A stretch of DNA of 64,000 nt, from positions 4,601-68,600 of the forward strand of contig CAIQKM010000005.1 of the NCBI GenBank assembly GCA_903872345.1. The letters are read 5' to 3'. The notes beneath the pieces are model-generated. The model had not been told where the DNA came from and searched no databases. It saw only the letters and a program-made list of their open reading frames with translations. How positions within the stretch are numbered: the first letter of the stretch is position 1; each line of letters opens with the position of its first letter. This stretch comes from an uncultured Verrucomicrobia subdivision 3 bacterium (GTDB lineage: Bacteria > Verrucomicrobiota > Verrucomicrobiia > Limisphaerales > UBA11358). A program made the position numbers and the translations under genes. Positions 5,441 to 51,700 of this stretch are shown here, piece by piece.

Positions 5441-5449
5441 TATAAATGG

Positions 5450-5971: not shown

Positions 5972-6037
5972 AAACTCTCAAAGCAATGTCTCACGCCCGG
6001 CGCGTCTGTCAACTGGTGAATGGCGAACGGGCACTGT

Positions 6038-6143
6038 GGAGCGGGGGTCTGTGACCCGCAGCAATGTCCAACCGCCAAATCGTAAACGTTATGCCAAGGC
6101 ATTCGGTAGGCGAATGTTGCTGCGGGTCACAGACCCGCGCTCC
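6038..6143. repeat. Long inverted repeat (27-bp arms, one mismatch, 52-nt spacer) downstream of uvrB
   Basis: ggagcgggggtctgtgacccgcagcaa (6038-6064) pairs with ttgctgcgggtcacagacccgcgctcc (6117-6143). Confidence 0.75.
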
Positions 6144-6174
6144 GATCAAATTAAGCCTCGCCCGATTTCGCATT

Positions 6175-15122: not shown

Positions 15123-16907
15123 CTATTCAGGTGCTGGCCATACCCAATCGCCTGTTCGTATATCCGGATCAAATGTATCGAATCCTCGCTCAGGAAACGC
15201 CCCGCCATCATCCTTCTCATTCCAGCCAATAGAATAGAGCAGATACCGGCCTGTATCCGTACGCTGATACTGCAACGGCTGACCTCCCATGATGTCATGT
15301 GGAATCGTCTTCAGAAATCGGGGCGACAAGGCATCCAATGTTTCTGGATATTTCCCCGTGGCCAGCCGATAACGCTCCAAACAACATGCCACCCGGGCTA
15401 AATCCACTGCCTCCTTCGTATAAATGAATAGCTGGCAGTCATGCTCATGGGAAAAACGCAGGCCATTCGCCCTAAAAATATACCAAGGGTGGGTTGCATC
15501 TTCCACTTCATCCAAATTAATATCATATTGTGGAAAAGCCAGGTGCCTAGCCGGGTCCGCAATCCGCAATGCCTGCTCAAAATCGGTTTGCGCTATCTTT
15601 AGCCGCTGCCGATCAAACCAGCCGTCCGGTAAGAGATGAAATTCTAAGGCACCCAAAAGCATCCAGCGATCCCACTGAAATGTATGCTGGTTCACAAAAC
15701 ATGAATACCCCGCATAAACGTAGTAGTCGCGCGGATATTGATAGTAATCAATGGTCGCAAGATCGCTCGCTCGCCTACCGCGCAAAGCCATTTGCAAGTC
15801 AGCGAGCAGATTCGGTTGACTCAGCTTCCATTCCAACTCCAACAAATCGGCGTCCGCCCATTCATGCTTTACCAAACCATCAACCACTGGCTGAAGCATA
15901 TCTCTCAGGATTCTTGCCCGAACCAGTTGAGAAATCATAAACGGTTCGGTTCGGATGGCATCGGCCAGTCGCAATCCCAGTTTGACATCATCCAGCGCCT
16001 CCTCTGTGCGGCCCAGTTCCAATTCAGCGATTGCCCGCAAACTTAATACCTGACCGCATCTTGCCAATGAAGAAAGATGCGGCTGGCAGATACCCATTGG
16101 CGGAGCTATTTGATAGCCGAGCGGATATCGTGAATATGGCATATGACTGGCACGCCGCAATTCCCCGATGGTTGCATCGTATTTGCTCAACGCCAGCAAG
16201 ACATCTTCGGCCGGTGATTGCGCTTCCGGACTGATGCTAAATTCATTGGTGAAATTAGTCTGCTCGTAAAAAGTCAGTATGGGAGACCGGTAATAATTCT
16301 GCCACGCTTTCAAATCAGTTGTGTGACCAGACTGCCAGACGGCACTTGCCGGTTGATTGCTACACTCTAAACGATGAAAAATCGAACATTCCATCCGGTT
16401 TACCACATTGGTGTCCGGGGGTTTTAGAGGCTCACCGTCTTTGTCCAGACACCATCGGTAAGAACTGGCCACAATGGGTGTCAGGGCAAAATTTTGGCCA
16501 TCCGGCACCGGCGATGGCACAAAACTAGCGAAATCGAATTTTTCGCCTTTGGCCTCGCGATCATGTTTGAAGGTTGTCCAATCATACCAGCCGCGAAAAT
16601 CCTCCTCCCCGTAAAAAACAAGGATTACGACCAGCAGCGCGGCTCCGATGAGCAAAGACTGTTTGAAAATGCGCCAGCTAAAGAACCAGCGACAAAACTT
16701 TCGGACCAGCTTGAATGAGAGAGCCAGCAGCCAGAATAGTAACAGCGCAGTTCCTGAATTTATCAGTAAATGGACCGTAAAATCAGCGGGCGCAAAACCG
16801 TTAATGCCCCACGAACCCACCCAGAAGGACTGCAAGCAGGTAACCAGTAGGCCGGTCAGCAAGGCGCTGACCACCCCCCACCTCGCTCTATGCCATTGGC
16901 TCTTCAT
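15123..16907 (-). CDS. Hypothetical polytopic membrane protein with large extracytoplasmic helical domain and GspG-like C-terminal motif
   Basis: 594 aa. N-terminal TM helices and a TPR-like helical middle. The C-terminus LERYRLATGKYPETLDAL...IPHDIMGGQPLQYQR...YLLYSIGWNEKDDGG resembles the globular domain of major type II pseudopilins. The gene is markedly AT-richer than its neighbours. Confidence 0.6.
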   Translation of the reverse strand: MKSQWHRARWGVVSALLTGLLVTCLQSFWVGSWGINGFAPADFTVHLLINSGTALLLFWLLALSFKLVRKFCRWFFSWRIFKQSLLIGAALLVVILVFYGEEDFRGWYDWTTFKHDREAKGEKFDFASFVPSPVPDGQNFALTPIVASSYRWCLDKDGEPLKPPDTNVVNRMECSIFHRLECSNQPASAVWQSGHTTDLKAWQNYYRSPILTFYEQTNFTNEFSISPEAQSPAEDVLLALSKYDATIGELRRASHMPYSRYPLGYQIAPPMGICQPHLSSLARCGQVLSLRAIAELELGRTEEALDDVKLGLRLADAIRTEPFMISQLVRARILRDMLQPVVDGLVKHEWADADLLELEWKLSQPNLLADLQMALRGRRASDLATIDYYQYPRDYYVYAGYSCFVNQHTFQWDRWMLLGALEFHLLPDGWFDRQRLKIAQTDFEQALRIADPARHLAFPQYDINLDEVEDATHPWYIFRANGLRFSHEHDCQLFIYTKEAVDLARVACCLERYRLATGKYPETLDALSPRFLKTIPHDIMGGQPLQYQRTDTGRYLLYSIGWNEKDDGGAFPERGFDTFDPDIRTGDWVWPAPE

Positions 16908-19006: not shown

Positions 19007-20443
19007 TCACTGCGCGATCAACCGCCGCAGCAAAAAGTAAACATCCGTGGACTCCATTTCCGGCGCCCGGCTGGCTCCCGGTTGCCCGGTAATAAGCACC
19101 GGCCAATCCTTTTTATCCGCCGGCCGCCGGCCATGCGACCCTTTCACCAACGTCGCGTCCAACGGAATGACATCCATGAGCATCCGGAAGCCCAGTTTCT
19201 TTTGCAACAACCGCCGGGCCACTTTCAATTTTGGAAACGCCAGCGCGGGGTCAATGAACAGTTCCACCGGGTCGTAGCCCGGCTTGCGATGGATGTCCAC
19301 GGTCCGGGCAAAATCCGGCGCCCGCGCATCATCCAGCCAGTAATAGTAAGTGAACCACGCGTTCGCATCCGCCACGGCAACCAGATCGCCCGCGCGCTCG
19401 TGATCAATACCGGCGGCGATTTTTTCCGCCTTGCCCAGCACGGTATCCACGCCAGTAGTCTTGCCCAGTACATTGCGAACCTCATCCTCCAAGGTCACAT
19501 CATTAAGATAAACATGCGCCACCTGATGATCCGCCACGGCGAACACCCGGCTGGCCCCGGCATCCAGAATTTCCCGCCCCAGCTCATCCTTCACCGTCAG
19601 CCAGCCGCGTTCCCGAAAAATCCGGTTCAGGTGGACGGGATTGTTCACATTCGTAATGCCATACTCCGAGAGCAGCACCACCGCAACGCCCCGTCCCGCA
19701 AAGAAATCAATCAACCCGCCCACCAGCGCATCCACTTCGCGCAGGTCGCGATGGATTTTGGGATTCAGCCCGCCGTCCGCAGCGTATGGCCCATGCCGTT
19801 GCAGGTTGTAATCCAGATGCGGCAGGTAAACCAGATTGAGCGTCGGCGCGTATGTCTGTTCAATCCATTTGGCCGACTCCGCAATCCAGCGCGACGCGGC
19901 ATCCGACTTGCCTTGCGGTGAATCCACCCCCGCCGCCGGTCCCCAAAAACCAAAAAACGGAAATTCCCCCAGCGCCTGCTTTACCTCGGTACGGATCGAA
20001 TAGGGCCACGCATAAACATCGAAAAATTTCCGCCCATCCGCCGGGTACATCGGGCGCGGCGTGATGGCATAGTCCACGCTCGAATACATGTTATACCACC
20101 AGAAACAATTCGCCGCCGTGGCGGGCGATCCCCCTCGCGCCGACCCCGGCGACGGAAGGCGGAGTTCATCCCAAATTTTCGGGCCGTGAACAATGTGATT
20201 GGACTGTTTCCAGAACTGCACCTCCGCCAGTTCGCGATGATACCAGCCGTTGCCCACAATCCCGTGCTGGGACGGCGCCCGCCCGGTGAGATAGTTGGAT
20301 TGCGCGGTGCAAGTGACTGCCGGAAACGCGGGGATAATGTGACTGAACATTCCCCGCCGCCGGAATTCTGCGATGCGCGGCGTGTGCTCGCCGATCAGTG
20401 CCTCGGTGAGCCCCACCACATTGATGACGGCCAGCCGGTTCAT
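19007..20443 (-). CDS. Alkaline phosphatase superfamily protein, nucleotide pyrophosphatase/phosphodiesterase type
   Basis: 478 aa. FPAVTCTAQSNYLTGRAPSQHGIVGNGW (Thr nucleophile context) is typical of NPP-type enzymes. The start overlaps the upstream stop by 4 nt. Confidence 0.8.
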   Translation of the reverse strand: MNRLAVINVVGLTEALIGEHTPRIAEFRRRGMFSHIIPAFPAVTCTAQSNYLTGRAPSQHGIVGNGWYHRELAEVQFWKQSNHIVHGPKIWDELRLPSPGSARGGSPATAANCFWWYNMYSSVDYAITPRPMYPADGRKFFDVYAWPYSIRTEVKQALGEFPFFGFWGPAAGVDSPQGKSDAASRWIAESAKWIEQTYAPTLNLVYLPHLDYNLQRHGPYAADGGLNPKIHRDLREVDALVGGLIDFFAGRGVAVVLLSEYGITNVNNPVHLNRIFRERGWLTVKDELGREILDAGASRVFAVADHQVAHVYLNDVTLEDEVRNVLGKTTGVDTVLGKAEKIAAGIDHERAGDLVAVADANAWFTYYYWLDDARAPDFARTVDIHRKPGYDPVELFIDPALAFPKLKVARRLLQKKLGFRMLMDVIPLDATLVKGSHGRRPADKKDWPVLITGQPGASRAPEMESTDVYFLLRRLIAQ

Positions 20444-31551: not shown

Positions 31552-32775
31552 ATGCAACAAACCCGCTACTGGCTCCCACTGGCCCTGTTTTTAGCCCTGC
31601 TCTCCCGTCTTAACCTCCAAGCCGATGCCTTGGACAATTGGACCACCAATCAAATATCCACCAATTATTGGGGTATTGATTGTGTCGTTTATGGCAACGG
31701 CCATTTTGTGGCGGGTGCGGAAAACCAGGATGACGAGGCGTTTTTCTCCTCGGAGGATGGCAAAAATTGGATGATGCGCTATTCCGGCGGCGGCCCGTGG
31801 GGGACTTCCTTGCAATTCGTCAACGGACGGTTTGTCGGCGTGGGTGGCTACAATTCCGTTTCCAGCTCGGCCGATTCAACCAACTGGACAATCTCTACTT
31901 TGCCTGCATATGTTGGGAGTGATTATGATGCCGGTTTTGGTGATGTAACCTACGGCAATGGTCTATATGTCAAGGTTGGCATAACCAATGGAATCGGCTC
32001 CATTCTCACTTCCTCGGACGGCAATACTTGGACCTACCGTCGGAAGACACCGGCAAATGGCGGATACATCAGCAGTATCGCTTACGGCACCGTTCCATTC
32101 TATCCCTCCACACAACCTTGGTTTGTGGCCGTGGGCAATAATGATGGACACTTTTATTACTCTTCCACCGGCGCAAGTTGGTCAGGTGGCAGCATACCCG
32201 GCGGGAATGTGGTTGGTTTTGGCAACGGTTTATTCATCATCCCCCTGACGGGCAGTTCCAATCTGGTTTCCTCCGATGGCCTCAACTGGAGCCAATTGAA
32301 GACCGGACTGACCAATAAGATTGGAAGGCCCATTTATCAAAATGGCATTTTTTGGGCTTGGGCGACAAATTATCTGGCCACTTCGGTTGACGGAACAAAT
32401 TGGGTTCAGTCTCCGAAACAAATTCCGTGCAGCGAGCAAGGAGGATTAAATGTTTCTTATTACCAGCCATTCGCAACAGATGGAAAAAGAGTGGTTACAT
32501 TTGGGAACACACAAGGGAATGATGTTTATTCAGATAACGGTTTCATTTACCTCTCCGACCCCCTCGTAAGCGTCCGCCTGACCAACAGTCCGACCCGCAA
32601 AGTGGTGCTTACCGGTCTGGCCGGCCGCAATTACCAAATCCAATCCGCCAGCAATCTGGGCGCCTCCGCCAATTGGCAGACCAACGCCACCCTCCAACTG
32701 ACCAACACCCCCTACCTCTGGTCCGATTCTTCCACCAATGCCGCCCGCTTCTATCGCGCCGTGCTCATGCCCTGA
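31552..32775 (+). CDS. Secreted Asp-box (BNR-like) beta-propeller protein with C-terminal RFYR module
   Basis: Signal peptide. Repeated S-x-D-G-x-N/T-W boxes (SSEDGKNW, SSADSTNW, SSDGNTW, SSDGLNW, SVDGTNW). Ends ...ARFYRAVLMP. Clearly AT-richer than flanking genes. Confidence 0.6.
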   Translation: MQQTRYWLPLALFLALLSRLNLQADALDNWTTNQISTNYWGIDCVVYGNGHFVAGAENQDDEAFFSSEDGKNWMMRYSGGGPWGTSLQFVNGRFVGVGGYNSVSSSADSTNWTISTLPAYVGSDYDAGFGDVTYGNGLYVKVGITNGIGSILTSSDGNTWTYRRKTPANGGYISSIAYGTVPFYPSTQPWFVAVGNNDGHFYYSSTGASWSGGSIPGGNVVGFGNGLFIIPLTGSSNLVSSDGLNWSQLKTGLTNKIGRPIYQNGIFWAWATNYLATSVDGTNWVQSPKQIPCSEQGGLNVSYYQPFATDGKRVVTFGNTQGNDVYSDNGFIYLSDPLVSVRLTNSPTRKVVLTGLAGRNYQIQSASNLGASANWQTNATLQLTNTPYLWSDSSTNAARFYRAVLMP

Positions 32776-32893: not shown

Positions 32894-34273
32894 TTATCTG
32901 CGTTCATCTGCGCCCATCTGCGGTTGACCTTCCCCGTTCCCTGCCGATTTCACCACCTTGTCCAAATTCCACCCAAACCGGTGCGTCAGCGGCCAGTACA
33001 CCATGAACGCCTGCCCGATCACATTTTGCACCGGGCACATGCCCCACGTGCGCGAATCGGAACTGTTGCACGTATTATCGCCCATGAACAGATAGGCATC
33101 CGGCCGGTTGGTAAAAATGGTGCTCTCGCGGGGAAACTTGGGCGCCAGATCCGGATACAGGTGATACTTCCGCGCCACCGTGCCGTTCACATGACCCGAA
33201 TATTCGCTCTCATGCGGCGGCGTGGCCGGATCAAAACCGTACACATTCGCAAAATGCGGCGTACTCGCATCCAGCCGCTCCCCGTTGATGCGCAGATGAC
33301 GGTCATCGCCGATCTGCACCTGTTCACCCGGCAACACCGTCAGCCGCTTCACGTAATAATCATCCTGATTCTTGATGGCCGTGCCCCGCGTGGAAAACAC
33401 CGCGATCTCCCCACGTTCCGGCTTTCGGAAATTGTAACTCATCCGGTTCACCAGCAGATGATCCCCGGCGGACACCTTCATGCGAATAATATCCTCCCCC
33501 TTGTGAAATACATGATCCGGCTGCCAGCTCAGGGCGGCGCGCAGCTCCAGCGCCTGTTCCCCGCAATCCGGCGGGAACCAGATGACATGCGCCACACCAT
33601 TGATCCACAGCGTCTGCTTGAGGTTAATTAGCACATGCACGGGCGGGTCAATGGAATCCAGCGGTCCATCCGTAAGCGCCACCAGATGAATGTACCGGTT
33701 TCCCGCGAACCATTCCTTCACGCGATTCCAGCCGGTGGGAATGACCAGACTATCCCGCAACCGCGTCTGTTCCTTGAGTTCCGCCGCGACCAGGTCCGGG
33801 TGGTAATCCTCCGGGCGATAATAGAGCAAATGCCGGTCCGCCGCCCAATAATCAATCTTGTCCTGACTGAAATCCGGCACGGAAGTGATGCCATAGAGCG
33901 TCGGCTGCATCGAACCCGTCGGAATCTTGAACGGTTGCAGGAAAAACGTCCGAATCGCCAGCGCCACCGCCAGCGCGACGAGTAAAACTTCGATGTTCTC
34001 CCGCGTGCTGCCATGCGGATACGGTCGAATCCATATGTCCGCCGCCGCCTGCAATTCCGTCAGCCGGGTGCCGGCCAGTTCGCCATCCCACGCTGCCACC
34101 GCCGCGCTTACCGCCATGAGTTTGGCCTGCATTTCTTCCTCCCCCTCGGGTGGCAGCAGGTCGCGCTGGGCCTGGAATAACCGTTCAAAATGCCGGTGCC
34201 GGGCATACGCCTCGCGAATGGTTTGAGAAAACATCCGGGCGGGCAAAACCTTGAAATGATAGATCAATGACAT
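32894..34273 (-). CDS. lepB: Signal peptidase I with long N-terminal cytoplasmic extension and enlarged periplasmic domain
   Basis: PTGSMQPTL (Ser box), GDHLLVNRMSY, FMGDNTCNSSDSRTWG. The start is taken at MSLIYHF (34273). The C-terminal ~12 codons run into an interspersed repeat. Confidence 0.85.
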   Translation of the reverse strand: MSLIYHFKVLPARMFSQTIREAYARHRHFERLFQAQRDLLPPEGEEEMQAKLMAVSAAVAAWDGELAGTRLTELQAAADIWIRPYPHGSTRENIEVLLVALAVALAIRTFFLQPFKIPTGSMQPTLYGITSVPDFSQDKIDYWAADRHLLYYRPEDYHPDLVAAELKEQTRLRDSLVIPTGWNRVKEWFAGNRYIHLVALTDGPLDSIDPPVHVLINLKQTLWINGVAHVIWFPPDCGEQALELRAALSWQPDHVFHKGEDIIRMKVSAGDHLLVNRMSYNFRKPERGEIAVFSTRGTAIKNQDDYYVKRLTVLPGEQVQIGDDRHLRINGERLDASTPHFANVYGFDPATPPHESEYSGHVNGTVARKYHLYPDLAPKFPRESTIFTNRPDAYLFMGDNTCNSSDSRTWGMCPVQNVIGQAFMVYWPLTHRFGWNLDKVVKSAGNGEGQPQMGADERR

Positions 34274-34638
34274 GCTGTCCCGATGCCGAGCGCGCACAAT
34301 ATAAGGGACACCCAAGGAAACGCCATCTGGAAAGGGGAAGCGCGTAAAACATCCAACCTCCAGTACGCTCTCACAAAATCCGGCGGCATGGCCAAACCAT
34401 CGTCCATTTGGACTGCGCCGGCAAAGCGAAGCGGCGACGGCGGTTTTCCACTCGCGAACTCGGCGACACGTATTTCCCAAAGCGGCTTTGTACTTCGGGA
34501 TGGCAACTGCAAGGCGGAACCGGTTCAAATTCAGCCGCCTCGAGCCGCTGCCGTCTTATCCGCAACCCGCATTAAATTTCTGTCATTCACCCGATTTGGC
34601 TCGCCATTCAGCCGCAAAACTTCGATAACCATCACCAT

Positions 34639-35649
34639 ATGAAATCGATTTTCCCGCTCCTGACCCTGCTCGCGCTCACCACCGCCGTGGCCCGCGCGGA
34701 TGAACCCTACCATTTCCTCAAGGAAATCCCCCTCACCGGCGACGGCGGCTGGGATTATCTCTCCGTGGATTCCGACGCCCACCGCCTCTATGTCTCCCAC
34801 GGCACGAAGGTGCTGGTCGTTGACCTCACCTCGGACACCGTCACCGGCGAAATCACCAACACCCCCGGCGTCCATGGCATCGCCATCGCGCCCAAACTGA
34901 ACCGCGGCTACGTCAGCGCCGGCCGCGCCAATCAGGTGAACATCGTGGATCTCGCCACCCTGCAAACCACCGCCACCGTCGCCACCGGCCAGAATCCCGA
35001 CTGCATCCTCTTCGAGCCCGGCCAGAATGAGGTCTATGCCTTCAACGGTCGCAGCAAGTCCGCCACCGTCATCGCCGCCGATACCGGCAAGGTCGTCGCC
35101 ACCATCCCCGAAGGCGGCAAACCCGAATTCGCCCAGGCCGACCCCGACGCCAATCGCGTTTTCAACAACATCGAAGACACCAGCGAACTCGTGGCCATTG
35201 ACACCAAGACCCACACCATCGCCAACCGCTGGCCCATCGCCCCCGGCGAAAGCGCTTCGGGCATGGCCATTGACGTGAAGAATCACCACCTGTTCCTCGG
35301 CTGCGACAACAAGCTCATGGCCATGGTGGACGACACCACCGGCAAAATCGTCGCCACCGTTCCCATCGGCGAAGGGGTTGACGCCAATGCCTTCGACCCC
35401 GGCACGCAACTCGCCTTTGCCTCCTGCGGCGACGGCACCACCACCATCGCCAAGGAAGACGGCAACACCCTGACCGTCGTCCAAACTCTCAAGACTGAGC
35501 GCAGCGCCCGCACCATGACGATTGACCCCGTCACCCACAAAATCTATCTCGCCTCCGCCAAGTTCGACGCCCCGGAACCCGGCCAGCGGCGCGGCAAAAT
35601 AGTGCCCGGCACGTTTAAAATTCTGGTTTACGGACTGGATCAAAAGTAA
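34639..35649 (+). CDS. YncE-like / YVTN-type seven-bladed beta-propeller protein, secreted
   Basis: Signal peptide. Repeated ~40-aa units (RLYVSHGTKVLVVDLTSDTVTGEI, RGYVSAGRANQVNIVDLATLQ, ...). Sits 9 nt upstream of the outer-membrane factor gene. Confidence 0.75.
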   Translation: MKSIFPLLTLLALTTAVARADEPYHFLKEIPLTGDGGWDYLSVDSDAHRLYVSHGTKVLVVDLTSDTVTGEITNTPGVHGIAIAPKLNRGYVSAGRANQVNIVDLATLQTTATVATGQNPDCILFEPGQNEVYAFNGRSKSATVIAADTGKVVATIPEGGKPEFAQADPDANRVFNNIEDTSELVAIDTKTHTIANRWPIAPGESASGMAIDVKNHHLFLGCDNKLMAMVDDTTGKIVATVPIGEGVDANAFDPGTQLAFASCGDGTTTIAKEDGNTLTVVQTLKTERSARTMTIDPVTHKIYLASAKFDAPEPGQRRGKIVPGTFKILVYGLDQK

Positions 35650-35658
35650 ACTCCGCCC

Positions 35659-37080
35659 GTGCCTGCCCGTAACAAAGTCTGGCCGCTGTTCCTCGGAATG
35701 GCGCTCTTAGCCGGTTGCGCCCATTACGAGTCGCAGCCGCTCTCGCCGTCCCAAACCGCCGCGCAATTGCAAGACCGCCGGTTGGAGGACCCCGGTCTCA
35801 AAGCGTTTCTCGCGCAAAACCTCGGCCAGGAGCCCGTCGCCTGGCCGCTGGCGGCATGGGATCTAAAATCCCTTACGCTCGCCGCGTTTTATTTTCATCC
35901 CGACCTCGCCGTCGCCCGCGCCCAATGGCAGCTTGCCGCCGCCGGCCTCAAAACCGCCGGTGCCCGGCCCAATCCCTCTATCACCGCCACCCCCGGCTAC
36001 GACTCCGGCATCCCGGATAATTTCAGTCCGTGGCTCATTCCGGTGTCCGTGGACATCCCGATTGAAACCGCCGGCAAACGCGGCAAACGCCTCGCCGAAG
36101 CCGCGAAAGTCGCCGAGTCCGCCCGCTGGAGCTTTGTCTCCGCCGCCTGGCAAGTGCGCAGCAACGTCCGCGCCAGCCTGCTGGACCTCCAATTCGCCGA
36201 CCGCCGCACCGCACTGCTTCAAACCCAGGTCACCGCCGAAACGGAAATCGTCCAGCGACTGCAACAACAGCTCGATGCCGGGGCCATCGCCCGACCCGAC
36301 CTGACCGTCGCGCAAATGGCCCTGAATCGGTCGCAACTGGATCTCGCCGATGCTCAATCCAAACAAGCTCAGGCCCGCTCCCGGCTCGCCGAAGCTTTGG
36401 GAGTTGGTTTGGATGCCGTAACCGGTCTCAAGCTGGACTTTGATTTCCCCGCCACCGCGCCGGATGCCCTCACCGCACCCGATGCCCGTCGCACCGCCTT
36501 GCGCGGCCGCGCGGACGTCCTCGGCGCCCTCGCCGATTATGCCGCCGCCGAGGCCGACCTCCGCTTGCAAGTCGCCAAACAATATCCCGACCTCCACCTC
36601 GGCCCCGGCTACGCCTGGAACAACGGCAACGCCGGCGACAGCCAGTGGAGTCTCGGCCTGACACTGGAGCTGCCCATCCTCGATCAAAACCAGGGCCCCA
36701 TCGCCGAAGCCGAAGCCCGCCGCAAACTGGCCGCCGCCAAATTCATCGCCGTGCAAGCCCAGGTGATCGCGCAAATCGACCGCGCCAATGCCGGTCTCGC
36801 CGCCGCCCGCCAGCAAGTGTCAACCAGCCACACCTTGCTCAAGTCCGCCGAATCGCAGGCCCAAGCCGTCACCGCCCAAGTGCAAGCCGGTGCCGCCACG
36901 CGCCTCGATTTATTGAGCGCCCAAATGGATTTGAACGCCGTCCGCCTCGCCCAACTCGACGGCGAGGCCCAGTTCCAAACCGCCCTCGGCGCCCTCGAAG
37001 ACGCCCTGCAACAACCCGCCGAATGGAACGCCATCGCCCTCAAAACCTCTGCCGCGGAAGCGAAAGGAAAGCAGCCATGA
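35659..37080 (+). CDS. Outer membrane efflux lipoprotein (TolC/NodT family)
   Basis: GTG start gives MPARNKVWPLFLGMALLAGC, a signal peptide with lipobox. Duplicated helical repeats typical of outer membrane factors. Confidence 0.85.
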   Translation: MPARNKVWPLFLGMALLAGCAHYESQPLSPSQTAAQLQDRRLEDPGLKAFLAQNLGQEPVAWPLAAWDLKSLTLAAFYFHPDLAVARAQWQLAAAGLKTAGARPNPSITATPGYDSGIPDNFSPWLIPVSVDIPIETAGKRGKRLAEAAKVAESARWSFVSAAWQVRSNVRASLLDLQFADRRTALLQTQVTAETEIVQRLQQQLDAGAIARPDLTVAQMALNRSQLDLADAQSKQAQARSRLAEALGVGLDAVTGLKLDFDFPATAPDALTAPDARRTALRGRADVLGALADYAAAEADLRLQVAKQYPDLHLGPGYAWNNGNAGDSQWSLGLTLELPILDQNQGPIAEAEARRKLAAAKFIAVQAQVIAQIDRANAGLAAARQQVSTSHTLLKSAESQAQAVTAQVQAGAATRLDLLSAQMDLNAVRLAQLDGEAQFQTALGALEDALQQPAEWNAIALKTSAAEAKGKQP

Positions 37081-38156
37081 AAAATATTTTCCGCAAGGAA
37101 CATCCAACATTCAACATCCAACGCTCAACATCCAGTGTTTGTCTCTTGCTCGCCGCCCTCCTGACCGCCGGCGCCCTCGCCGGTTGCAGCAAACCCGGCG
37201 GTGACAAGGACGACAAACCCAAAGCCGACGACGCCGCCGACAGCAAGCCCGATGCCCCGGCCGATGCCGGCGTCACCATCGACGCCGATACCCAATCCCG
37301 CCTCGGCCTCGCCACCGGCAGCCCGACCGTCGCCGACTGGCAGCCCGAAATCAAAGCTTACGGCCAGGTCCTCGACCGCGCCCCCCTCAGCGACGCCCTC
37401 CTGGAACTCAACCGCGCTGAAATCGCCTTGGACAGTTCCCGCGTGGAACTCGACCGCGCCAAAGTCTTGCAAGCCCAAAACAACCTTTCGCAGCGCGCCT
37501 TTCAGGATATTGAGACCACCTGCAATCAGAATTTCTCCGCCGCCCAGGCCGCTTATTTGAAAATCCGTCAAACTTGGGGCCCGGAAATCGCCGGCCTCAC
37601 CGGCGACATCGTCCTGCCCCCCGGCACCGTCCGGAAACCAAACCCCCAGCTCGCCGCCCTCACCGATAACAGCAGCCTAATCCGCGTGGACCTGCCCGCC
37701 GGTGAACGTCTCCCCGAATTGAAAGGTGCCGTGCGCCTCGTTCCGCTCGCCGAAAAAGTTGCCCCCGTGAACGGTATCTGCTTCGACCGCCTGCCCGTCA
37801 TGGATCCCCAAACACAGCAGGAATCCATCCTCTGTATGGCCGACGGTGCCGATGCTCAAAAACTCATCCCCGGCGAAGCCGTAACCGCTTACATCAAAAC
37901 TTCCGGCACTCCGGTCAGCGGCGTGGTCGTTCCCGCCAGCGCCATTCTGCGCTATCAGGGTGCGACCTGGATCTATGTCCAAACCGGCACCAACCGTTTC
38001 AGCCGCTCGGCCGTCACCCTGGACCGTTCCGCTGAGAACGGCTGGTTCATTACGGATGGCCTCGCCGCCACCAACCACATTGTGGTCACCGGCGCCCAAA
38101 CGGTTCTGTCCGCCGAATTAAGCGGCATCGGTTTTAACACCGGTCAACGCGACTGA
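37077..38156 (+). CDS. Probable RND periplasmic adaptor lipoprotein (divergent)
   Basis: The ATG overlaps the upstream stop (ATGA at 37077-37080). Lipobox LAGC, a low-complexity D/K/P linker, a coiled-coil segment and a C-terminal beta domain (...ATWIYVQTGTNRFSRSAVTL...). Its position between the outer membrane factor and the RND pump supports the call. Confidence 0.65.
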   Translation: MKNIFRKEHPTFNIQRSTSSVCLLLAALLTAGALAGCSKPGGDKDDKPKADDAADSKPDAPADAGVTIDADTQSRLGLATGSPTVADWQPEIKAYGQVLDRAPLSDALLELNRAEIALDSSRVELDRAKVLQAQNNLSQRAFQDIETTCNQNFSAAQAAYLKIRQTWGPEIAGLTGDIVLPPGTVRKPNPQLAALTDNSSLIRVDLPAGERLPELKGAVRLVPLAEKVAPVNGICFDRLPVMDPQTQQESILCMADGADAQKLIPGEAVTAYIKTSGTPVSGVVVPASAILRYQGATWIYVQTGTNRFSRSAVTLDRSAENGWFITDGLAATNHIVVTGAQTVLSAELSGIGFNTGQRD

Positions 38157-38169: not shown

Positions 38170-41100
38170 ATGCTCCGGCAACTCGTAGAACTTTCTTTGC
38201 GCAAACGCGGCGTGATCATCACGCTGGCGGCCGCCCTCATCTGCTGCGGCGTGCTCGTGACCCTGCGCTCCAAGCTGGACGTCTTCCCCGACTTCGTCCA
38301 GCCGCAGGTCACCGTCCAGACCGAGGCCCCCGGCCTTGCCTCCGAACAGGTCGAGTCTCTCGTCACCCGCCCCGTAGAAAGCGCCCTCAACGGCGCCGGC
38401 AATCTCGATTCCATCCGCTCCGAATCCATCCAGGGCCTGTCCGTTGTCACCGCCGTCTTCAAGGAAGGCACCGAAATCTATCAGGCGCGCCAGATGATCG
38501 CCGAGCGCCTCGCCCAGTTGAACGGCGACCTCCCCGCCGGCGTCCAGACGCCCAAGATGGAGCCGCTCACCTCTTCCACCATGGACCTCCTCAAGTTCGG
38601 CCTCGTGTCGGACAAGCTGTCCCCCATGGAACTCCGCACGTTTGCCGACTGGACTGTCCGCCCGCGCCTGCTTTCCGTTCCCGGCATCGCCGCCACCAAG
38701 GTCTTCGGCGGTGAAGTCCGCCAGTTGCAAATCCAGTTGCGGCCCGACCGCCTGACCGCCTTTCAAGTTTCCGTGCAGGATGTCACCACCGCCGCCAGCC
38801 AGGCCACCGGCGTGCGCGGAGCCGGTTACGTGGAAACCACCGCCCAACGCCTGGTCATCCAAACCGACGGCCAGCAGACCACGCCTGAACAACTCGGCAA
38901 CATCGTCGTCGCCCAACACGCGGGTCGCAGCGTGCTCCTGAAAGATGTCGCCAACGTTGTCGCCGCCGGCGCGCCCCAATTCGGCGACGCTCTCATCAAC
39001 GGCAAACCCGGTATCCTCATCACCACCGCCAGCCAATATGGCGCCAATACGGAAGATGTAACCCTCGGCGTGGAAGCCGCGTTGGATGAACTGAAACCCG
39101 TCTTTGCCGCCGAAGGCGTCCAGTACGTCCCCGGCCTGCACCGCCCCGCCAACTTTATCGAAATCGCCATCCACAACATGCGCTCATCGCTCCTGCTCGG
39201 TGCGGTGCTGGTGGGCGTGGTGTTATTCCTCTTCCTGCTCGATCTGCGCACCGCGCTGATTTCGTTCATCTCCATCCCGCTCTCGCTGCTCGCCACCATC
39301 ATGGTGCTGGATCACTTCGGCATCACGCTCAACACCATGACCCTCGGCGGCCTCGCCGTGGCCATCGGCGTGGTCGTGGACGACGCCATCATTGACGTCG
39401 AAAACATCCTGCGCCGCCTGCGCGAAAACCTCACGCTGCCCGAGCCGCGTCCGCTCTTCACCGTGGTGCTTGAAGCCTCGCTGGAAGTGCGGAGCGCCGT
39501 CGTGTACGCCACCTTCATCGTCGCGCTGGTTTTCCTTCCCGTGCTGCTGATGGGCGGTTTGCAGGGCAAGTTCTTCGCCCCGCTCGGCTTCGCTTTCATT
39601 CTCGCCATCATGGCCTCGTTGCTCGTGGCGCTCACCGTCACGCCCGCGCTCTGCTTCGCGTTGCTGTCCCGCACCAAACCGCATGCGGAACCCGGCTATC
39701 TGCGCTGGTTGAAACAAATCCATGGCGCCTGGCTGGAACGGATCAGCCGCTGGCCCAAAAGTGTCATCGCCGTTTCCCTCCTCCTGTTCTTCACCGCGCT
39801 GGGCACACTGCCGTTCTTCGGCGGCGAATTTCTCCCCGATTTCCGCGAAGGCCATTTTGTCGTCGGTGTCACCATGACGCCCGGCACGTCGCTCGGGGAA
39901 ATGAAACGGCTCGGCACGCAAATTTCCGCCGATATTCTCAAAATCCCCGGCGTCCAAAGCGTGGAGGAACAAATCGGCCGCGCCGAAATGGGCGAAGACA
40001 CCTGGGGCCCGCACCGCGGCGAAATGCACGTGGAACTCAAGCCCGATCCCGATCTCGACCAGGAAAAAATCCAGAACCAGATTCGCGATGCGCTCGGCAA
40101 ATATCCCGGCGTGCAGACCGAAGTCCTCACCTTCCTCGGCGACCGCATCGGCGAAACCATCGCCGGCGAAACCGCCCAGGTGGTAGTGAACGTGTTCGGC
40201 GATGACCTCGACGTGCTCGATGCCAAGGCCAATGAAGTCGCCCAAGTGCTAAGTAAAGTATCCGGTGCCGCCGATGTGCAGGTCGCCGCGCCGCCCGGCA
40301 CTCCGCGCGTAGTTGTGAAGCTCCGCCCCGACCGTCTGACCCAGTTTGGCTACCGCCCTGTTGAAGTGTTGGAAGCCGTCCAGACCGCCTATCAGGGCAG
40401 CGTGGCCGCGCAGACTTACGAAGGCGACAAGGTGTTCGATGTGAATGTCATTTTGGAACCGGCCGCGCGCCGGGAACCCGAAACCATCGGCAACCTGCTC
40501 GTCGGCAATTCCGCCGGCGTTCGCCTGCCGTTAAACCAGCTCGCCGATGTCTATCTCGCCAACGGCCGCTACGCCATTCTCCACGATGGCGCCCGCCGCC
40601 GCCAGACCGTCACGTGCAATCCCGCCGGCCGCGACGTCGCCTCCTTCGTAGCCGATGCCCAGAAAGCCGTTGCCGCCCAAGTCACCTTTCCCGCCGGCGT
40701 CTATGCCGAGTTTAGCGGCGCCGCCGAGGAACAGGCCCAGGCCCAGCGCGAATTGCTGCTGCATTCCGGCCTCACCGCCGTGGGCATCATTCTGCTGCTC
40801 TCCATGGTCTTCCGCCGCGCCAGCCATCTGTTCCTCGTGCTGGCCAACGTGCCTTTCGCCCTCGTCGGCGGCGTGCTCGCCATCTTTCTGGCCGGTTATT
40901 TCGGCGGTGGCCAGGCCTCGCTCTCGCTCGGCACCCTCGTGGGTTTCGTCACCCTCTTCGGCATCACCATGCGCAATTCCATCATGATGATCTCGCACTT
41001 CGAACATCTCGTGAACGAGGAAGGCATGACTTGGGGCGTCGAAGCCGCCCTGCGCGGGGCCACCGAACGCTTGATTCCCATTCTCATGACCGCCCTCGTC

Positions 41101-41280
41101 ACCGGCCTCGGCCTCCTGCCGCTCGCCCTCGGCAGCGGCGCCGCCGGCCGCGAAATCGAAGGCCCCATGGCCACCGTCATCCTCGGCGGCCTCGTCACCT
41201 CCACCCTCCTGAACCTCCTCGTCCTCCCGACCCTCGCCCTCCGCTACGGAACCTTCGGCCGGAAGGAAGAAAAGCTGTAA
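38170..41280 (+). CDS. RND efflux permease, CusA/CzcA (heavy-metal efflux) family
   Basis: 1036 aa. LDVFPDFVQPQVTVQTEAPGLASEQVE N-terminus and a 12-TM architecture. Confidence 0.92.
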   Translation: MLRQLVELSLRKRGVIITLAAALICCGVLVTLRSKLDVFPDFVQPQVTVQTEAPGLASEQVESLVTRPVESALNGAGNLDSIRSESIQGLSVVTAVFKEGTEIYQARQMIAERLAQLNGDLPAGVQTPKMEPLTSSTMDLLKFGLVSDKLSPMELRTFADWTVRPRLLSVPGIAATKVFGGEVRQLQIQLRPDRLTAFQVSVQDVTTAASQATGVRGAGYVETTAQRLVIQTDGQQTTPEQLGNIVVAQHAGRSVLLKDVANVVAAGAPQFGDALINGKPGILITTASQYGANTEDVTLGVEAALDELKPVFAAEGVQYVPGLHRPANFIEIAIHNMRSSLLLGAVLVGVVLFLFLLDLRTALISFISIPLSLLATIMVLDHFGITLNTMTLGGLAVAIGVVVDDAIIDVENILRRLRENLTLPEPRPLFTVVLEASLEVRSAVVYATFIVALVFLPVLLMGGLQGKFFAPLGFAFILAIMASLLVALTVTPALCFALLSRTKPHAEPGYLRWLKQIHGAWLERISRWPKSVIAVSLLLFFTALGTLPFFGGEFLPDFREGHFVVGVTMTPGTSLGEMKRLGTQISADILKIPGVQSVEEQIGRAEMGEDTWGPHRGEMHVELKPDPDLDQEKIQNQIRDALGKYPGVQTEVLTFLGDRIGETIAGETAQVVVNVFGDDLDVLDAKANEVAQVLSKVSGAADVQVAAPPGTPRVVVKLRPDRLTQFGYRPVEVLEAVQTAYQGSVAAQTYEGDKVFDVNVILEPAARREPETIGNLLVGNSAGVRLPLNQLADVYLANGRYAILHDGARRRQTVTCNPAGRDVASFVADAQKAVAAQVTFPAGVYAEFSGAAEEQAQAQRELLLHSGLTAVGIILLLSMVFRRASHLFLVLANVPFALVGGVLAIFLAGYFGGGQASLSLGTLVGFVTLFGITMRNSIMMISHFEHLVNEEGMTWGVEAALRGATERLIPILMTALVTGLGLLPLALGSGAAGREIEGPMATVILGGLVTSTLLNLLVLPTLALRYGTFGRKEEKL

Positions 41281-46062: not shown

Positions 46063-48582
46063 ATGGCCCTCTCGCTCCAGTTTGCTTTCCCGCTGCCCAA
46101 CGGCCTGCACGCCCGTCCCGCCAGCCTGCTCGAAGCCGTCACGCGCCGCTACCTCGCCGGCATCACCCTCGCCAACCGGCGCACCGGCGCCAGCGCCGAT
46201 GTCAAAAGCGTGCTCGCTCTCATCGGCCTGGACACCCGTCATCAGGACGCCTGCGAATTCACCATCAGCGGTCCCGACGAACGCGAAGCCCTCGCCGCCC
46301 TGACCGTTTTCATTCGCGACACCCTGCCGCATTGCGATGACCCGCCGCCCGACGGCGGCGGAGCCGTGGCCGCACCCCGGTTACCGGCCATGCTGTCAGC
46401 GGAAGCCATCACCGCCTTTTACGGCACCCCGGTGGTGCCCGGCATTGCCGCCGGCCGCGTCGTGCTCGCCGGCGGATTCCAAATTCCCGCCAGCCTGCCG
46501 CGAAGCGGTTGCGCCGATCCCGCCGCCGAGTGGGAAACCCTCGCCGCCGCGCTGCAACGCGTCATTGCCTACTACGACCAACGGCTCGCCGCCGCCAAAA
46601 ACCAGCTTATCCGCGATTTGCTGCAAGCGCATCAGGCCATCGCCCGCGACCCCGAACTCAGCCGCCAGTTGCACCAGGCCGTCGCCCAGGATGGCCGCAC
46701 CGCCGCCGGGGCCATTGCGGACACCACCGCCCATTTCACCGACCTCTTCGCCCGCAGCGGCAGCGCCCTGCTGCGCGAACGCGGCCTGGATATTCAGGAT
46801 GTGGCGCTGCACCTGCTGCGACAGGTTTACGGCGCCGCCGCCCAAACCCGCGAGATCAAGCTGGACGCCCCCGCCATCCTCCTCGCGGAATCCCTCACGC
46901 CCGGCCAGTTCCTCGCGCTGGACCGCACTTTCCTGCGCGGCCTCGTGCTGCTGCACGCCGGCACCACCTCCCATACCGTTATTTTGGCCCGCAGCTTTGG
47001 CCTGCCCACCCTCACCGGCGCGGCCGTGGCGGATGCCGCCGCCCTCGCGGGACAGGAAGCCGTGCTCGATGGTTTTGCCGGGGCCTTGCTCACGCAGCTC
47101 ACCGACCCCGCCCGCCGCTATTATGCGCGGGAACAACTCCGGCTCATCGGCCGGCAGGAACACCTGCAAGCCATCGCCGCCCGCGCCGCCGCCGCCCCGG
47201 TCACGCGCAAAATCGAGATCGCCGCCAACATCGCCACCGCCGGCGAAGCCGCCGCCGCCTTCGCCGCCGGCGCGGAAGGCATCGGCCTGTTCCGCACGGA
47301 AATGCTGTTTCTGGACCGCGAGTCCCCGCCCGATGAAGCCGAACAGTTCGCCGCCTATCGCGAAGTTCTCGCCCAGGCGGGCGAGCGCACCGTCATCATC
47401 CGCACCCTCGACAGCGGCGGCGACAAACCGCTCGATTACCTCCATCTCCCCGCCGAGGACAACCCCTTCCTCGGCTTTCGCGCCGTCCGGATTTATCCCC
47501 GCTTCGAGGAACTGTTCCGCACCCAAATCCGCGCCCTCCTCCGCGCCTCGGCGCATGGCAAACTAAAATTGCTCGTGCCCATGATCGCCATGCTCGACGA
47601 AGTGCGGTGGGTAAAACGCATCATCGCCGAGGAACAGGCCCGCTGCACCGCCGCCGGCATTCCCTTCGCCGCCACCATGGAAGTCGGCGCCATGATCGAA
47701 GTGCCCGCCGCCGCTTTCATCATGGACACCCTCTGCCATGAACTGGATTTTTTCAGCATCGGCACCAACGACCTCCTGCAATATTTCACCGCCGCCGACC
47801 GCGCCAACCCCAACGTCGCCGCCCTCTACAATCCCCTGCAACCCGCCTTTCTCCGCCTGCTCAAACTGGTCGTGGACGAGGCGCACAAACACGGCAAATG
47901 GATCGGTCTCTGCGGCGAAATGGGCGGCCACGCCCGCTGGCTCCCGCTGCTCGCCGGGCTCGGCCTGGATGAAATCAGCGTGCCCGCCCCGGCCATCGCC
48001 CAGATCAAGGCCGAACTCGCCGGCTGGCCGCCGGCGCCTTGCCGCCAGTTGCTCGCCGCCGCCCTCAATTGCGCCACCGCCAATGAAGTCGCCGGCCTCC
48101 TCCGGCAGGCTTCCGCCCAGGCGACCGTCCCGCTGTTCGCCCCGGAACTGGTGCTCACCGGCCAGACCGCCCTCACCCGCGAGGAAGCCGTCAAGCTCGC
48201 CACCGACCGCCTCTACGTCCTCGGCCGCACCGACGATTCGCGCGGCCTGGAACAGGCCGTTCTGGACCGGGAAAAAAACTGCTCCACCGGCTTTGGCTTC
48301 GGCTTCGCCATCCCCCACGGCCAGACCGACGCCCTCCGCTCCGACTCCCTCGTCCTCGTGAAGCTGAACACCCCCGTTGCCTGGAACGCCCTCGATGGCC
48401 GGCCCGTCAGCGTGATTTTCCTCCTGTGCATTCGCGAAAGCGAACCCGTCGCCCGCCACCTCCCCGTGCTCGCCCGCCTCGCCCGCCGCGTCATGGACCC
48501 CGATTTCCGCGCCCGCGTGCTGGCCGAGAACGAACCGCCGGCGCTTTACGCGTTGCTTCAGGGATACTTGAAAATTGAGTAA
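46063..48582 (+). CDS. Multiphosphoryl-transfer PTS protein: HPr domain, Enzyme I and EIIA type-2 domain
   Basis: N-terminal HPr-like GLHARPAS. EI core HAGTTSHTVILARSFGLPT and FFSIGTNDLLQYF. C-terminal EIIA-2 GFGFAIPHGQTD. The domain order matches the E. coli PtsA/FrwA-type architecture as I recall it. Confidence 0.9.
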   Translation: MALSLQFAFPLPNGLHARPASLLEAVTRRYLAGITLANRRTGASADVKSVLALIGLDTRHQDACEFTISGPDEREALAALTVFIRDTLPHCDDPPPDGGGAVAAPRLPAMLSAEAITAFYGTPVVPGIAAGRVVLAGGFQIPASLPRSGCADPAAEWETLAAALQRVIAYYDQRLAAAKNQLIRDLLQAHQAIARDPELSRQLHQAVAQDGRTAAGAIADTTAHFTDLFARSGSALLRERGLDIQDVALHLLRQVYGAAAQTREIKLDAPAILLAESLTPGQFLALDRTFLRGLVLLHAGTTSHTVILARSFGLPTLTGAAVADAAALAGQEAVLDGFAGALLTQLTDPARRYYAREQLRLIGRQEHLQAIAARAAAAPVTRKIEIAANIATAGEAAAAFAAGAEGIGLFRTEMLFLDRESPPDEAEQFAAYREVLAQAGERTVIIRTLDSGGDKPLDYLHLPAEDNPFLGFRAVRIYPRFEELFRTQIRALLRASAHGKLKLLVPMIAMLDEVRWVKRIIAEEQARCTAAGIPFAATMEVGAMIEVPAAAFIMDTLCHELDFFSIGTNDLLQYFTAADRANPNVAALYNPLQPAFLRLLKLVVDEAHKHGKWIGLCGEMGGHARWLPLLAGLGLDEISVPAPAIAQIKAELAGWPPAPCRQLLAAALNCATANEVAGLLRQASAQATVPLFAPELVLTGQTALTREEAVKLATDRLYVLGRTDDSRGLEQAVLDREKNCSTGFGFGFAIPHGQTDALRSDSLVLVKLNTPVAWNALDGRPVSVIFLLCIRESEPVARHLPVLARLARRVMDPDFRARVLAENEPPALYALLQGYLKIE

Positions 48583-48760: not shown

Positions 48761-51700
48761 TCAGGGTCCGAGCATCACGCGATAGAAACGAGCACGAAGG
48801 TTCGTCAAACCAGCATCCGTCCAATTGAAGGGCGGCACGGGAGAATTGGTGGTAAAGAGAGTCTGCCAGCCGCCCGCCGCCAAATTGGTTGAACCTTCAA
48901 TGGTGTAATTGGGACCGGCGTCGCCGCTGATGGTGAGGCCAAACTGCCCCGTCGTGAATCCCGCCACCCCCAGCACGGGCTTGCGCGGCGAGATCACTCC
49001 CACCCAAAAGTTTTGGGTCGCCGCCAGACTGGCCGTATTCGTTACCACCACCGTGAACTGGTTGCTGGTGCCGCCCATGACCACGGGCGGACGCCAGGTA
49101 ACAACGCCGCTCGCCGGGTTGATCCCCGCGCCGGCGGGCGCGACGGGCAACGAAAAACCGAGCGCCAGCGCCGGCGCATTCCGATCACCCGCCTGATTGG
49201 TCACGGACAAGGTTGTCCCGGCGATGAGGACACGGTTGGTGATCGCCGCCAGAACCGGAGGCAGCAACGGGTTCAACCAGACCGCGCTCATTGGCAACAC
49301 GGTATAAGTGAGCTGGCCATTGGTCACGACCATGGACGGCTGGAACCCGCCAAACCAGGAGCCATCGGGATTGATGGTGGCACCGCCGAGCGTATAGCCG
49401 TTGGTGCTGTTGAGCGATGGACCGGTCAGAATCAGGGCCTGCGCGGCGGCGACGTTGGTGCCCAGACTGATGGTCACTTTCACGGCGTTGGCGGCGTCCT
49501 TGTTGTTCAACACCGCCCCCAGCGCGCCATTGGTATAACGAATGCCATAGGCGGCGAAATTGATGGCGGGCGCCGGTGCAATGACCGCCGGCAGGGCGCT
49601 GCCGCCGGCGGCGATGGAAAACAGTTTGAGGGCATAATATTCCGGCCGCGCCGCCACCACGCCCGTACCGTTGTCGGCAATCGGCGTATAGGATGAGGCG
49701 CCGCTGCCGCCACTGTGAAAATTGATCCCCTGGCCCCCGTTGACGGCGATAGTGAACAGCACATCCACGGCCCAGAGCGCGGAACCATATTGGGCGCTAT
49801 TGGTGTTGCCCCCGCCGGAAAAGGAGCCGGACTCGTCCACACGAAAACCTTGCGGCAGGCTGAAATGACCGGCCGCCGACACGAGGTTGCTCACGTCGGC
49901 CGCCAGGCTGGGATCCAACTGGAGCAGCTCCGCCATGGTGGCATTGGTGGACGTGGCGCTGTCGCGGTAATAGTGATGGGTTGCCAGGGAAATCACCTTT
50001 GACTCATTGGTTATAAACGGCAGGGTGTAACCCGAAACATTCCAGGACGTGGCCGGGCCGGTGATCGTCCAGCCCACGCCATGATTGGTCACCGCCCAGC
50101 CGGGCACCGAGTTGGTGATGGCGGCGGCAAAAGGCTGCCACTCCGCGAGGAAATTCGCGTAGCTGTAAGTATTGGTGCGGTAATAGTCGTGATACAAATC
50201 CGGTTCGTTGCCAATTTCAAATCCCAGCAGGCGCGAACCCAGCGCATTGGCGGCGTACGCCGCTTCGGCGGCGGCGTTGGCCGCCGTGTTGGAGACCTGG
50301 TTGACGGCATAAATCACGCTCCAATTTGTGGGCAGGGCGTTCACAAAACCGGCCAGGGCGTCCACCTGCGCGGGCGTGATAGCCGGACAGTTGGACAATC
50401 CGTTCCAACACGTCGAATCCACCGAAGCCGCGCCGATGCGCAAGACGCCTGCACCCAAACGGCCCAGCATGCCGAGCAAGGAGATGTCGTTTGAGCTAAA
50501 GAGGCTGCCGCTCATCTGCGCTTTTTCATAACTGAATCCGCAGAAAGCCGGATTGATCGGTATGCCCGTATTCGTGGCCGAAAAGCTGACCGAGGCGTTC
50601 ACCACGGAATTGCTGACCGCAGTGACCACCAACTGCAACAGCGAGCCGGTATCGTTAAGGCTGGCGGCCATGCCGGCCGGCAACGAGTTCAGCGCCCAGG
50701 TTCCGCCACCGCTTTTGGCCCCGTACGCCAGCAATGGAATGGTGCCGACGTAATATGCGAAAGCCGAACCGATGACGTTGACTCTGGCAGTTCCTTGGAT
50801 GACCAAGTTGCTGACGGACAACATCGGCGCGACGGGATTGGCCGGAACCTGATTATTAAATTCCATGATTGCACCGGCACTGACACCCAAAGTGAGCGAA
50901 CTGTTGGTGAGGGTCTGCGCCAGACCCATGACCTGTACGCAATTCGTGGCGCCATCGGCGACCGTCACGGCCCCGGAGAGGCTGCTGGCCGAGGAGATGG
51001 CCAACCGGCCGGCATTGATGACCGTCGTGCCGGTGTAGGTGTTGGTGCCGAGCAACGCCAGCAAACCGGTGCCATTCTTAACCAGCGAACCCGGTCCCAT
51101 GAGGTTTCCCCAAAATGCGTTGCTGGAATTATTGCCGCCTGCGGTCAGCGTGATGGCGGCGGGAGTGGTGGCATTATTCTGAAGCGCCACAGTCACGCCG
51201 GCCGTTGCCCCCGCCAGTCCGCCAACGGAAAAAGCCCGGCCACTGACGGCCTGATCGAATTGCAAAACGCCGCCGTTCAGCGTGACCGTGCTGTACTGGG
51301 CGGCGTTCGCATTGGCCAGGTCATTGGTGCCGGCGTTGACGGTCAGCGGCCCGGTGAAGGTGTTGGCGTTGGAGAGCACCAGTGCGCCCGCGCTGTTCCA
51401 GAGCAAACCGGAGCCGGCGGGATTTTCATTAATCAAACCCGGAATCACCAACGTGTAAGCGGCATTGTTGACTGCAATTTGCGCCTGCGGGCCGGCGAGG
51501 GTGATGGTGCGGGACGGGGCGAGCCAGAAGATGCCGCCATTGGCGCTGCTGGCTTCGGTCAAGCTGGCGCCGTTGGTGATCACCAGATTATTGTTCGTGT
51601 TCCCCAGGCTGTAGTCGGCCTGAATGCCGAGTGACCCGCCCAGAACGCTGATGGTTCCGGAATAGGGTTGAGCCAGACTATTGTAACGAAACGTCAACGT

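Follow-up and report, generated by a model that had tools for sequence, protein, structure and literature searches.

We analysed a 64-kb window, a stretch of 64,000 nucleotides from contig CAIQKM010000005.1 of an uncultured Verrucomicrobia subdivision 3 bacterium, in which several long genes end in a C-terminal module marked by the residues R-F-Y-R (the RFYR domain). The exact string RFYR occurs four times in the six-frame translation of the window, each time 4-5 residues ahead of the stop of a long open reading frame (ORF; 407-1775 aa), where chance would give, on a rough estimate, about 0.5 occurrences in ~128,000 translated residues; the looser pattern [RK]F[YF][RK] occurs eight times across all six frames. 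A hidden Markov model (HMM A3, built from 24 tails) scored the four proteins, here called A to D, at E-values of ~1e-23 to 3e-28 over ~70 residues and found no further copy of the domain in the window. An earlier note on this DNA had proposed that five tails share the module. Four of them do, and the fifth, that of protein E, was missed by the RFYR models and is tied to the others only through intermediates, discussed below. The five tails lie as follows.

8298 to 8510, minus strand: RFYR domain of protein A, the last ~71 aa of a 709-aa ORF (8295 to 10424); HMM A3 E 6.1e-23.
32557 to 32772, plus strand: RFYR domain of protein B, aa 336-407 of a 407-aa ORF (31552 to 32775); HMM A3 E 1.3e-23 over model positions 3-74, HMM A5 E 8.5e-18.
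48764 to 48985, minus strand: RFYR domain of protein C, the last 74 aa of a 1117-aa ORF (48761 to 52114); HMM A3 E 3.4e-28.
52154 to 52378, minus strand: RFYR domain of protein D, the last 75 aa of a 1775-aa ORF (52151 to 57478); HMM A3 E 3.2e-26.
58747 to 58968, minus strand: FFQLRYP C-terminal beta-sandwich module of protein E, a partial giant PATR ORF (58744 to beyond 64000); HMM A7 E 9e-41.

Proteins A to D all begin with what reads, by eye, as a Sec signal peptide, bearing out the earlier note. Their tails have a high S, T and N content, and those of A and B are 25-36% identical to those of C and D. Protein A ends in NPMRFYRSLKQ and carries an Ig_3/I-set domain (aa 553-634; Pfam Ig_3, 2.6e-10) directly before its RFYR domain. 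Protein B, ending in ARFYRAVLMP before the stop codon at 32773-32775, has a propeller-like body of six S-x-D-G-x-x-W repeats that is without a Pfam match. In protein C (ending in ARFYRVMLGP) the RFYR domain follows a signal peptide, PATR repeats, weak GH79_C/Alpha-L-AF_C matches, and an Ig/cadherin-like domain common to D; in protein D (ending in ARFYRVLLGP) it follows a signal peptide, PATR repeats, Big_3_5, a PL8 lyase (Lyase_8 plus Lyase_8_C), Ig_3, and the cadherin-like domain. The D lyase scores 1.6e-18 with Pfam Lyase_8 and 2.4e-15 with the NCBIfam chondroitinase-AC model, the latter under that model's cut-off. The bodies of these proteins differ, as had been said of them, but are not wholly unrelated: C and D are 40% identical across their N-terminal 390 aa (the PATR region) and 58% across their last 167 aa, PATR regions are common to C, D and E, and an Ig_3 domain to A and D. 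The adjacent genes C and D (48761-52114 and 52151-57478, minus strand) resemble a tandem pair, sharing an N-terminal PATR region and a two-domain C-terminal cassette (Ig/cadherin-like plus RFYR) around different cores (GH79-like versus PL8). Such a layout suggests that enzyme cores have been exchanged in cassette fashion.

The tail that these proteins share forms a domain of its own, ~70 residues long and predicted to be an FN3/Ig-like beta-sandwich, and is a member of a very large family. AlphaFold2, run on the RFYR-domain alignment, confidently predicts an all-beta fold of six to seven strands (predicted local distance difference test score, pLDDT, 87.5; predicted template modelling score, pTM, 0.75). 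The module spans ~70-75 aa, slightly longer than the 50-60 aa originally assigned to it. Across 345 aligned copies the most conserved residues are W41 (99%), D58 (86%), R66 (83%), F67 (87%), Y68 (94%), and R69 (94%); with the other signature positions (G22, G25, Y28, [IV]30, [QE]31, A32, S33, [ND]35, L36, and F56) these make up the signature G-x2-G-x2-Y-x-[IV]-[QE]-A-S-x-[ND]-L-x4-W ... F-x-D ... R-F-Y-R. The RFYR motif sits within the last beta-strand of the predicted fold, and the stop lies 4-6 aa past it in 111 of 123 terminal copies, with no extra tail; what had been described as RFYR plus 3-4 residues is therefore the end of a folded domain. Because R, F, Y and R are four strongly conserved residues in a row, the last strand is under constraint on both of its faces, a pattern as compatible with a functional surface as with a core. 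Chance similarity among low-complexity S/T/N-rich tails is ruled out by the HMM E-values of 1e-23 to 1e-28, the predicted fold, the thousands of relatives, and the conservation of W, Y, D, and RFYR in register across the 345 copies.

Structure searches suggest, weakly, a fibronectin type III (FN3)-like fold. The best of the top 50 Foldseek matches in the PDB were the FnIII domains of the pectate lyases Pel3 and PelI (TM-score 0.69-0.73 over 73-75 columns, E 0.01-0.07), then engineered FN3 scaffolds; taken over FnIII domains and scaffolds together the comparison is a weak one (E 0.01-0.3, TM-score 0.54-0.73). BFVD was also searched, and the two databases gave generic FN3/Ig-like matches alone, none at E<1e-3. 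One conceivable arrangement is an FN3 fold that is short of its last strand and takes a donated strand in its place. The sole PDB sequence match of the domain profile, 7rpy_A, was discarded, as it aligns largely to the ENLYFQG expression tag (a tobacco etch virus, TEV, protease site) of a cohesin-containing construct, a caution on tag-driven false positives.

No Pfam-A or NCBIfam model covers the RFYR module in the five whole window proteins at E<=0.1, and none matches recurrently in 41 diverse RFYR copies at E<=10. At these thresholds Por_Secre_tail (PF18962), CHU_C (PF13585), and TIGR04183 match neither the five proteins nor the 41 copies, and Pfam fn3 (PF00041) is without a match on the 41 copies. 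The earlier note, which could not match the module to the tail of the type IX secretion system (T9SS), is supported on this point, and it was right that the module is unlike PEP-CTERM and LPXTG signals: the tails have neither a hydrophobic helix nor a basic tail, and no NCBIfam match. A literature search on the RFYR motif and on C-terminal sorting or novel domains in Verrucomicrobia returned nothing relevant. The RFYR domain is an uncurated family, absent from the Pfam-A and NCBIfam copies searched, and belongs to a kind of extracellular accessory domain that is already known.

The short, lineage-specific tag first suggested is not borne out: the module is a folded domain whose family is not narrowly confined to one lineage. 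An exhaustive search of 1.84 billion cluster representatives found 42,274 proteins matching the RFYR profile at E<=1e-3 and 3,912 at E<=1e-10, and in metagenomes the domain is very common; the named matches are mostly from Verrucomicrobiota, with at least Hydrogenedentota besides. Named members, from Verrucomicrobiae and Hydrogenedentota, are annotated as "hypothetical," "cadherin-like," "LRR," or "cohesin domain-containing" proteins. Scanning one genome per species for a sequence pattern gave 65 related loci (20-kb stretches), most titled as Verrucomicrobiota metagenome-assembled genomes (subdivision 3, Pedosphaera, Limisphaerales) and a minority standing under other record titles (Bifidobacterium, Lentisphaeraceae, Limnocylindrales, Acidoferrum, Acidiferrales, Sulfopaludibacter); the pattern was restricted to RFYRV[LM]LGP, so that one subfamily is favoured among the 65 loci. 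A tblastn search against plasmids gave no match. On a 251-kb metagenomic contig (L066), a two-copy RFYR gene apparently split by a frameshift (9323-10228) lies 9 kb from a separate small Por_Secre_tail (T9SS) gene (19283-19609), which shows that one organism can have the two kinds of tail.

In >85-95% of the proteins that carry it, the domain finishes exactly where the protein does, a strong C-terminal bias. In the window and the 65 related loci, 98 of 103 matches end within 10 aa of the stop. Among carriers, 29 do not match the search pattern and form a sample independent of it; 24 of them are terminal, four are internal-only, and one is without a stop in its locus (24/28 with a stop). In the databases, 112 of 115 short proteins end in a complete RFYR copy, a figure from a word-index protein search that gave only short fragments and serves C-terminal statistics, not architectures, and 135 of the 149 best-scoring representatives also end in a copy, with proline as the final residue in 77 (57%) of these 135. 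Tandem arrays are common among the latter: 148 of the 149 have 2-6 copies, and 275 of their 410 copies are internal. Counted by copy in multi-copy proteins the module is therefore internal at least as often as terminal, but counted by protein it is not. A crude signal-peptide heuristic was positive in 47 of 71 carriers in the related loci versus 164 of 338 controls (p=0.009).

The company that the domain keeps is extracellular. In 71 multi-copy proteins the most frequent partner is fn3 (34 proteins), followed by F5/8 type C, Ig, cohesin, PKD, LRR_5, and RHS domains, and PL8, GH79-like, GH5-like, and PATR types also occur across the carriers; many carriers consist only of a signal peptide, fn3 domains, and RFYR copies. 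PEP-CTERM, Por_Secre_tail, and autotransporter domains are not among the 25 most frequent of the 73 partner families. Where a copy is not terminal it is followed by ordinary globular domains (GH5-like catalytic, Ig, and others), and never by a membrane anchor. Three loci (L010, L024, L034; ORFs at ~4457-6500) encode GH5-like enzymes with the RFYR domain internal (aa ~230-330), ahead of the catalytic domain, and each of these genes adjoins one for a ~260-aa PEP-CTERM protein. In a minus-strand ORF at 8390 of another locus (L065), a module of intermediate type occupies aa 96-168, between the signal peptide, which it directly follows, and an FGE/SUMF1-like domain that is recognised by motif only; this N-terminal module scores with both the RFYR and the FFQLRYP profiles.

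Placement so close to the stop could mean that the module is a C-terminal secretion or sorting domain akin to the C-terminal domain (CTD) of T9SS substrates. The last copy would then be recognised by a putative outer-membrane export or attachment machinery of Verrucomicrobiota and their relatives, and internal copies would be duplicates that serve as spacers. Such a role would accommodate the precise ending of >85-95% of carriers at the domain boundary, the ~70-aa beta-sandwich resembling the T9SS CTD, the many unrelated passenger types with signal peptides, the abundance of carriers (several per 64 kb in the window, many per related locus), and the presence of a second, related C-terminal module type, FFQLRYP, in the same genomes. 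Last copies also best match the last copies of other proteins in 73 of 120 cases, against a 35% share of the pool, although this resemblance can stem from shared ancestry of whole architectures. The tandem arrays count against a sorting role, as do copies standing before GH5-like, Ig, or other domains or, in one case, right after the signal peptide, positions that a signal needing a free C-terminus would not tolerate. So too do the lack of any Por_Secre_tail or CHU_C match, the absence of a T9SS CTD structure from the 50 best Foldseek matches in the PDB, and the absence of a recurrent neighbouring gene family in the 65 loci. All-against-all clustering of ORFs found no non-carrier family in more than six of these loci, and hence no adjacent machinery. 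On balance we consider a sorting or secretion role somewhat unlikely.

Alternatively, the domain might be a generic, structural FN3-like spacer or stalk that binds no specific ligand, its terminal bias a by-product of 3' duplication and shuffling in multidomain genes. The FN3-like fold, the head-to-tail arrays, and the frequent company of canonical fn3, Ig, and cadherin-like domains all sit well with this, and the best match of the last copy lies within the same protein in 40 of 120 cases, consistent with local duplication. Yet spacers normally lie between functional domains, and a domain that ends the protein in >85-95% of carriers leaves nothing for a spacer to separate; conservation of the R-F-Y-R / D / W signature is very strong over tens of thousands of clusters; and in the many carriers made up of a signal peptide, fn3, and RFYR copies the array is the main protein content. 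We therefore regard a pure spacer as distinctly improbable.

The tail of protein E, which ends in VFFQLRYP, belongs to a family of its own (A7). Its 13 close homologues, all metagenomic, are extremely conserved, are all terminal, and all end in VFFQLRYP; members were also seen in three of the related loci (L036, L046, L014). The family consensus is ...L.F.WAPDH.GW.LYTN.VGL....W.PV.GS...T...I.I.P....VFFQLRYP, followed by the stop, and the family is not in Pfam. AlphaFold2 predicts an all-beta module (pLDDT 76) whose best structural matches are again FN3 scaffolds. The tail is undetected by RFYR models A3 and A5, and hhalign gives a probability of 0.6-1.4%. Three more distant E-type copies in the related loci end in VFYRLVLPTP, VFFQLIYP, and VFYRLRLP; with the E family broadened to include them, hhalign against the RFYR family reaches a probability of 27% (E 6.6e-4), the alignment covering the W...FYR half and keeping the register first proposed. 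Three sequences score with both models over the same residues, one of them an L066 ORF at 21 and 32 bits. These intermediates lend moderate support to the E tail being a divergent sister family that shares common ancestry with the RFYR type, and the FFQLRYP module is probably a distant branch of an RFYR superfamily. A bolder proposal is that the RFYR domain and its FFQLRYP sister serve an undescribed pathway for outer-membrane secretion or surface anchoring, present in Verrucomicrobiota and some other phyla, as the domain through which proteins are recognised or attached, and so are functionally equivalent to the T9SS CTD; we think this unlikely.

We tentatively favour a different role, in which the RFYR domain may serve, at the ends of secreted enzymes and adhesin-like proteins, to bind or retain them, a function that, like its ligand, we infer. 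Terminal position, repetition, and diverse passengers together form the pattern of avidity-based attachment modules, and it is this pattern that favours binding. Carrier proteins would be exported by Sec and then fold; the terminal domain, single here and in tandem elsewhere, would act as a non-catalytic binding module, tethering the attached enzyme or adhesin-like protein to the polysaccharide substrate or, at the cell surface, to a polymer or partner. It would stay on the mature protein rather than being removed as a signal. Of the sorting, anchoring, or secretion roles suggested in the earlier note, anchoring or binding thus fits better, and sorting or secretion, weakened by the tandem and internal copies, is less probable.

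Several observations weigh against a binding module. An end-of-protein rule of >85-95% is stronger than is usual for carbohydrate-binding modules (CBMs) and just as characteristic of a secretion signal like the T9SS CTD. All 103 carriers of the window and the Verrucomicrobia loci have a single copy, and the list of 149 representatives was ranked by summed score, so that tandem arrays are over-represented in it. No CBM, SLH, or dockerin model in Pfam matches the RFYR domain, whether in whole proteins or in the 41 copies, the structural matches are weak (Foldseek E 0.01-0.1), and the conservation of R and D could be purely structural, reflecting a salt bridge.

The surroundings of the RFYR genes in the window are those of an ordinary chromosome (59.8% GC). 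The genes include those for a circularly permuted ATP-grasp protein, UvrB, GH43, an esterase, CvfB, YgjP, a phosphodiesterase, dehydroquinate (DHQ) synthase, H+-PPase, RuvB, signal peptidase I, UDPGP, and GSDH, together with two resistance-nodulation-division (RND) efflux operons and a fused phosphotransferase system (PTS) protein. Nothing in the 64 kb looks like a dedicated sorting machinery, and genes of the T9SS machinery (PorK/L/M/N, Sov/SprA, PorU/V) are absent from it. The signal peptidase I gene (32894-34528, minus strand; Peptidase_S26 at aa 352-512) encodes an unusually long N-terminal extension of ~350 aa and is convergent with gene B, 120 bp from its end; this adjacency is probably a coincidence, because it is not repeated in the related loci. 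Two prepilin-type N_methyl proteins are encoded on the minus strand, at 57644-58393 (between D and E) and 14197-14991, and one of the two matches DUF1559 weakly; they may be paralogues resembling type II secretion pseudopilins, of the sort typical of Planctomycetes-Verrucomicrobia-Chlamydiae (PVC) bacteria. The PTS fusion, encoded at 46063-48582 (plus strand), joins HPr, Enzyme I, and EIIA(2) in one chain of 839 aa. Sizeable ORFs without a Pfam match lie at 15123-16907 (minus), 34531-35643 (minus), and 37140-38156 (plus). The first (594 aa) has a low GC content at third codon positions (GC3), 0.53 versus ~0.75 in its neighbours, and the last occupies the expected place of the membrane-fusion protein in the second RND operon (OEP 35659-37080, pump 38170-41280) and has no match to any HlyD model.

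Abundant degraders of polysaccharides, the Verrucomicrobiota of the Pedosphaera/Limisphaerales type export and display their enzymes in ways that are poorly understood. A domain that sits on tens of thousands of clusters, is nearly always protein-final, and lies outside Pfam-A and NCBIfam leaves a gap in annotation that is worth closing, and with a curated RFYR model a large share of these organisms' extracellular proteome could be labelled. Should the domain serve in surface retention or export, it would offer a handle on an unknown envelope-targeting mechanism; should it and the FFQLRYP module belong to an undescribed pathway, they would label, in bacteria abundant in soil and fresh water, the glycan-degrading and adhesin proteins that are secreted or exposed at the surface. 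If it were merely another FN3-like accessory module, the finding would be routine.

Comparison with known systems helps to place the domain. The T9SS CTD, too, is an Ig-like beta-sandwich (~70-100 aa) that closes Sec-exported proteins at their very C-terminus, is joined to many unrelated passengers, and has many examples per genome, though a beta-sandwich is a generic property of many families and the RFYR domain has no sequence match to the CTD. A single copy, always terminal, would be expected of a T9SS CTD, a rule that holds for RFYR domains in the window (4/4) and in the Verrucomicrobia loci (98/103) but fails across the family, with its arrays of 2-6 copies and its internal-only and N-terminal copies. 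The named hosts differ as well, being mainly Verrucomicrobiota, a phylum in which we know of no described T9SS. PEP-CTERM proteins, the substrates of exosortase, also bear a C-terminal feature on secreted proteins, in the same phylum and even in the related loci, but the RFYR domain lacks the PEP motif, transmembrane helix, and basic tail, and the two features occur on different proteins, the PEP-CTERM ORFs in those loci being other than the RFYR carriers. LPXTG (sortase) signals differ in that RFYR tails end in RFYRxxxxP, with no hydrophobic stretch.

FN3 accessory domains, such as the N-terminal FnIII domains of PelI and Pel3 (PDB 3b4n, 4u4b), are of the same size, all-beta, and found on secreted carbohydrate-active enzymes. 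Canonical fn3 domains are nevertheless separate units in the same proteins as the RFYR domain (hhalign probability between the two, 0.4%), the order of signature residues differs, and the RFYR domain is strongly terminal; FN3 domains are usually linkers. Closest in function, by analogy, may be the SLH domains, cell-wall-binding repeats, LysM domains, tandem CBMs, and dockerins. The dockerin is a Ca-binding helical module and the RFYR domain is all-beta, which excludes a dockerin-type fold, and the likeness to the whole group is one of architecture, not of sequence or fold. Like these modules, the RFYR domain is terminal, occurs singly or in short tandem arrays, and is joined to many catalytic or adhesive passengers, and it is this resemblance that we favour as a guide to its possible function.

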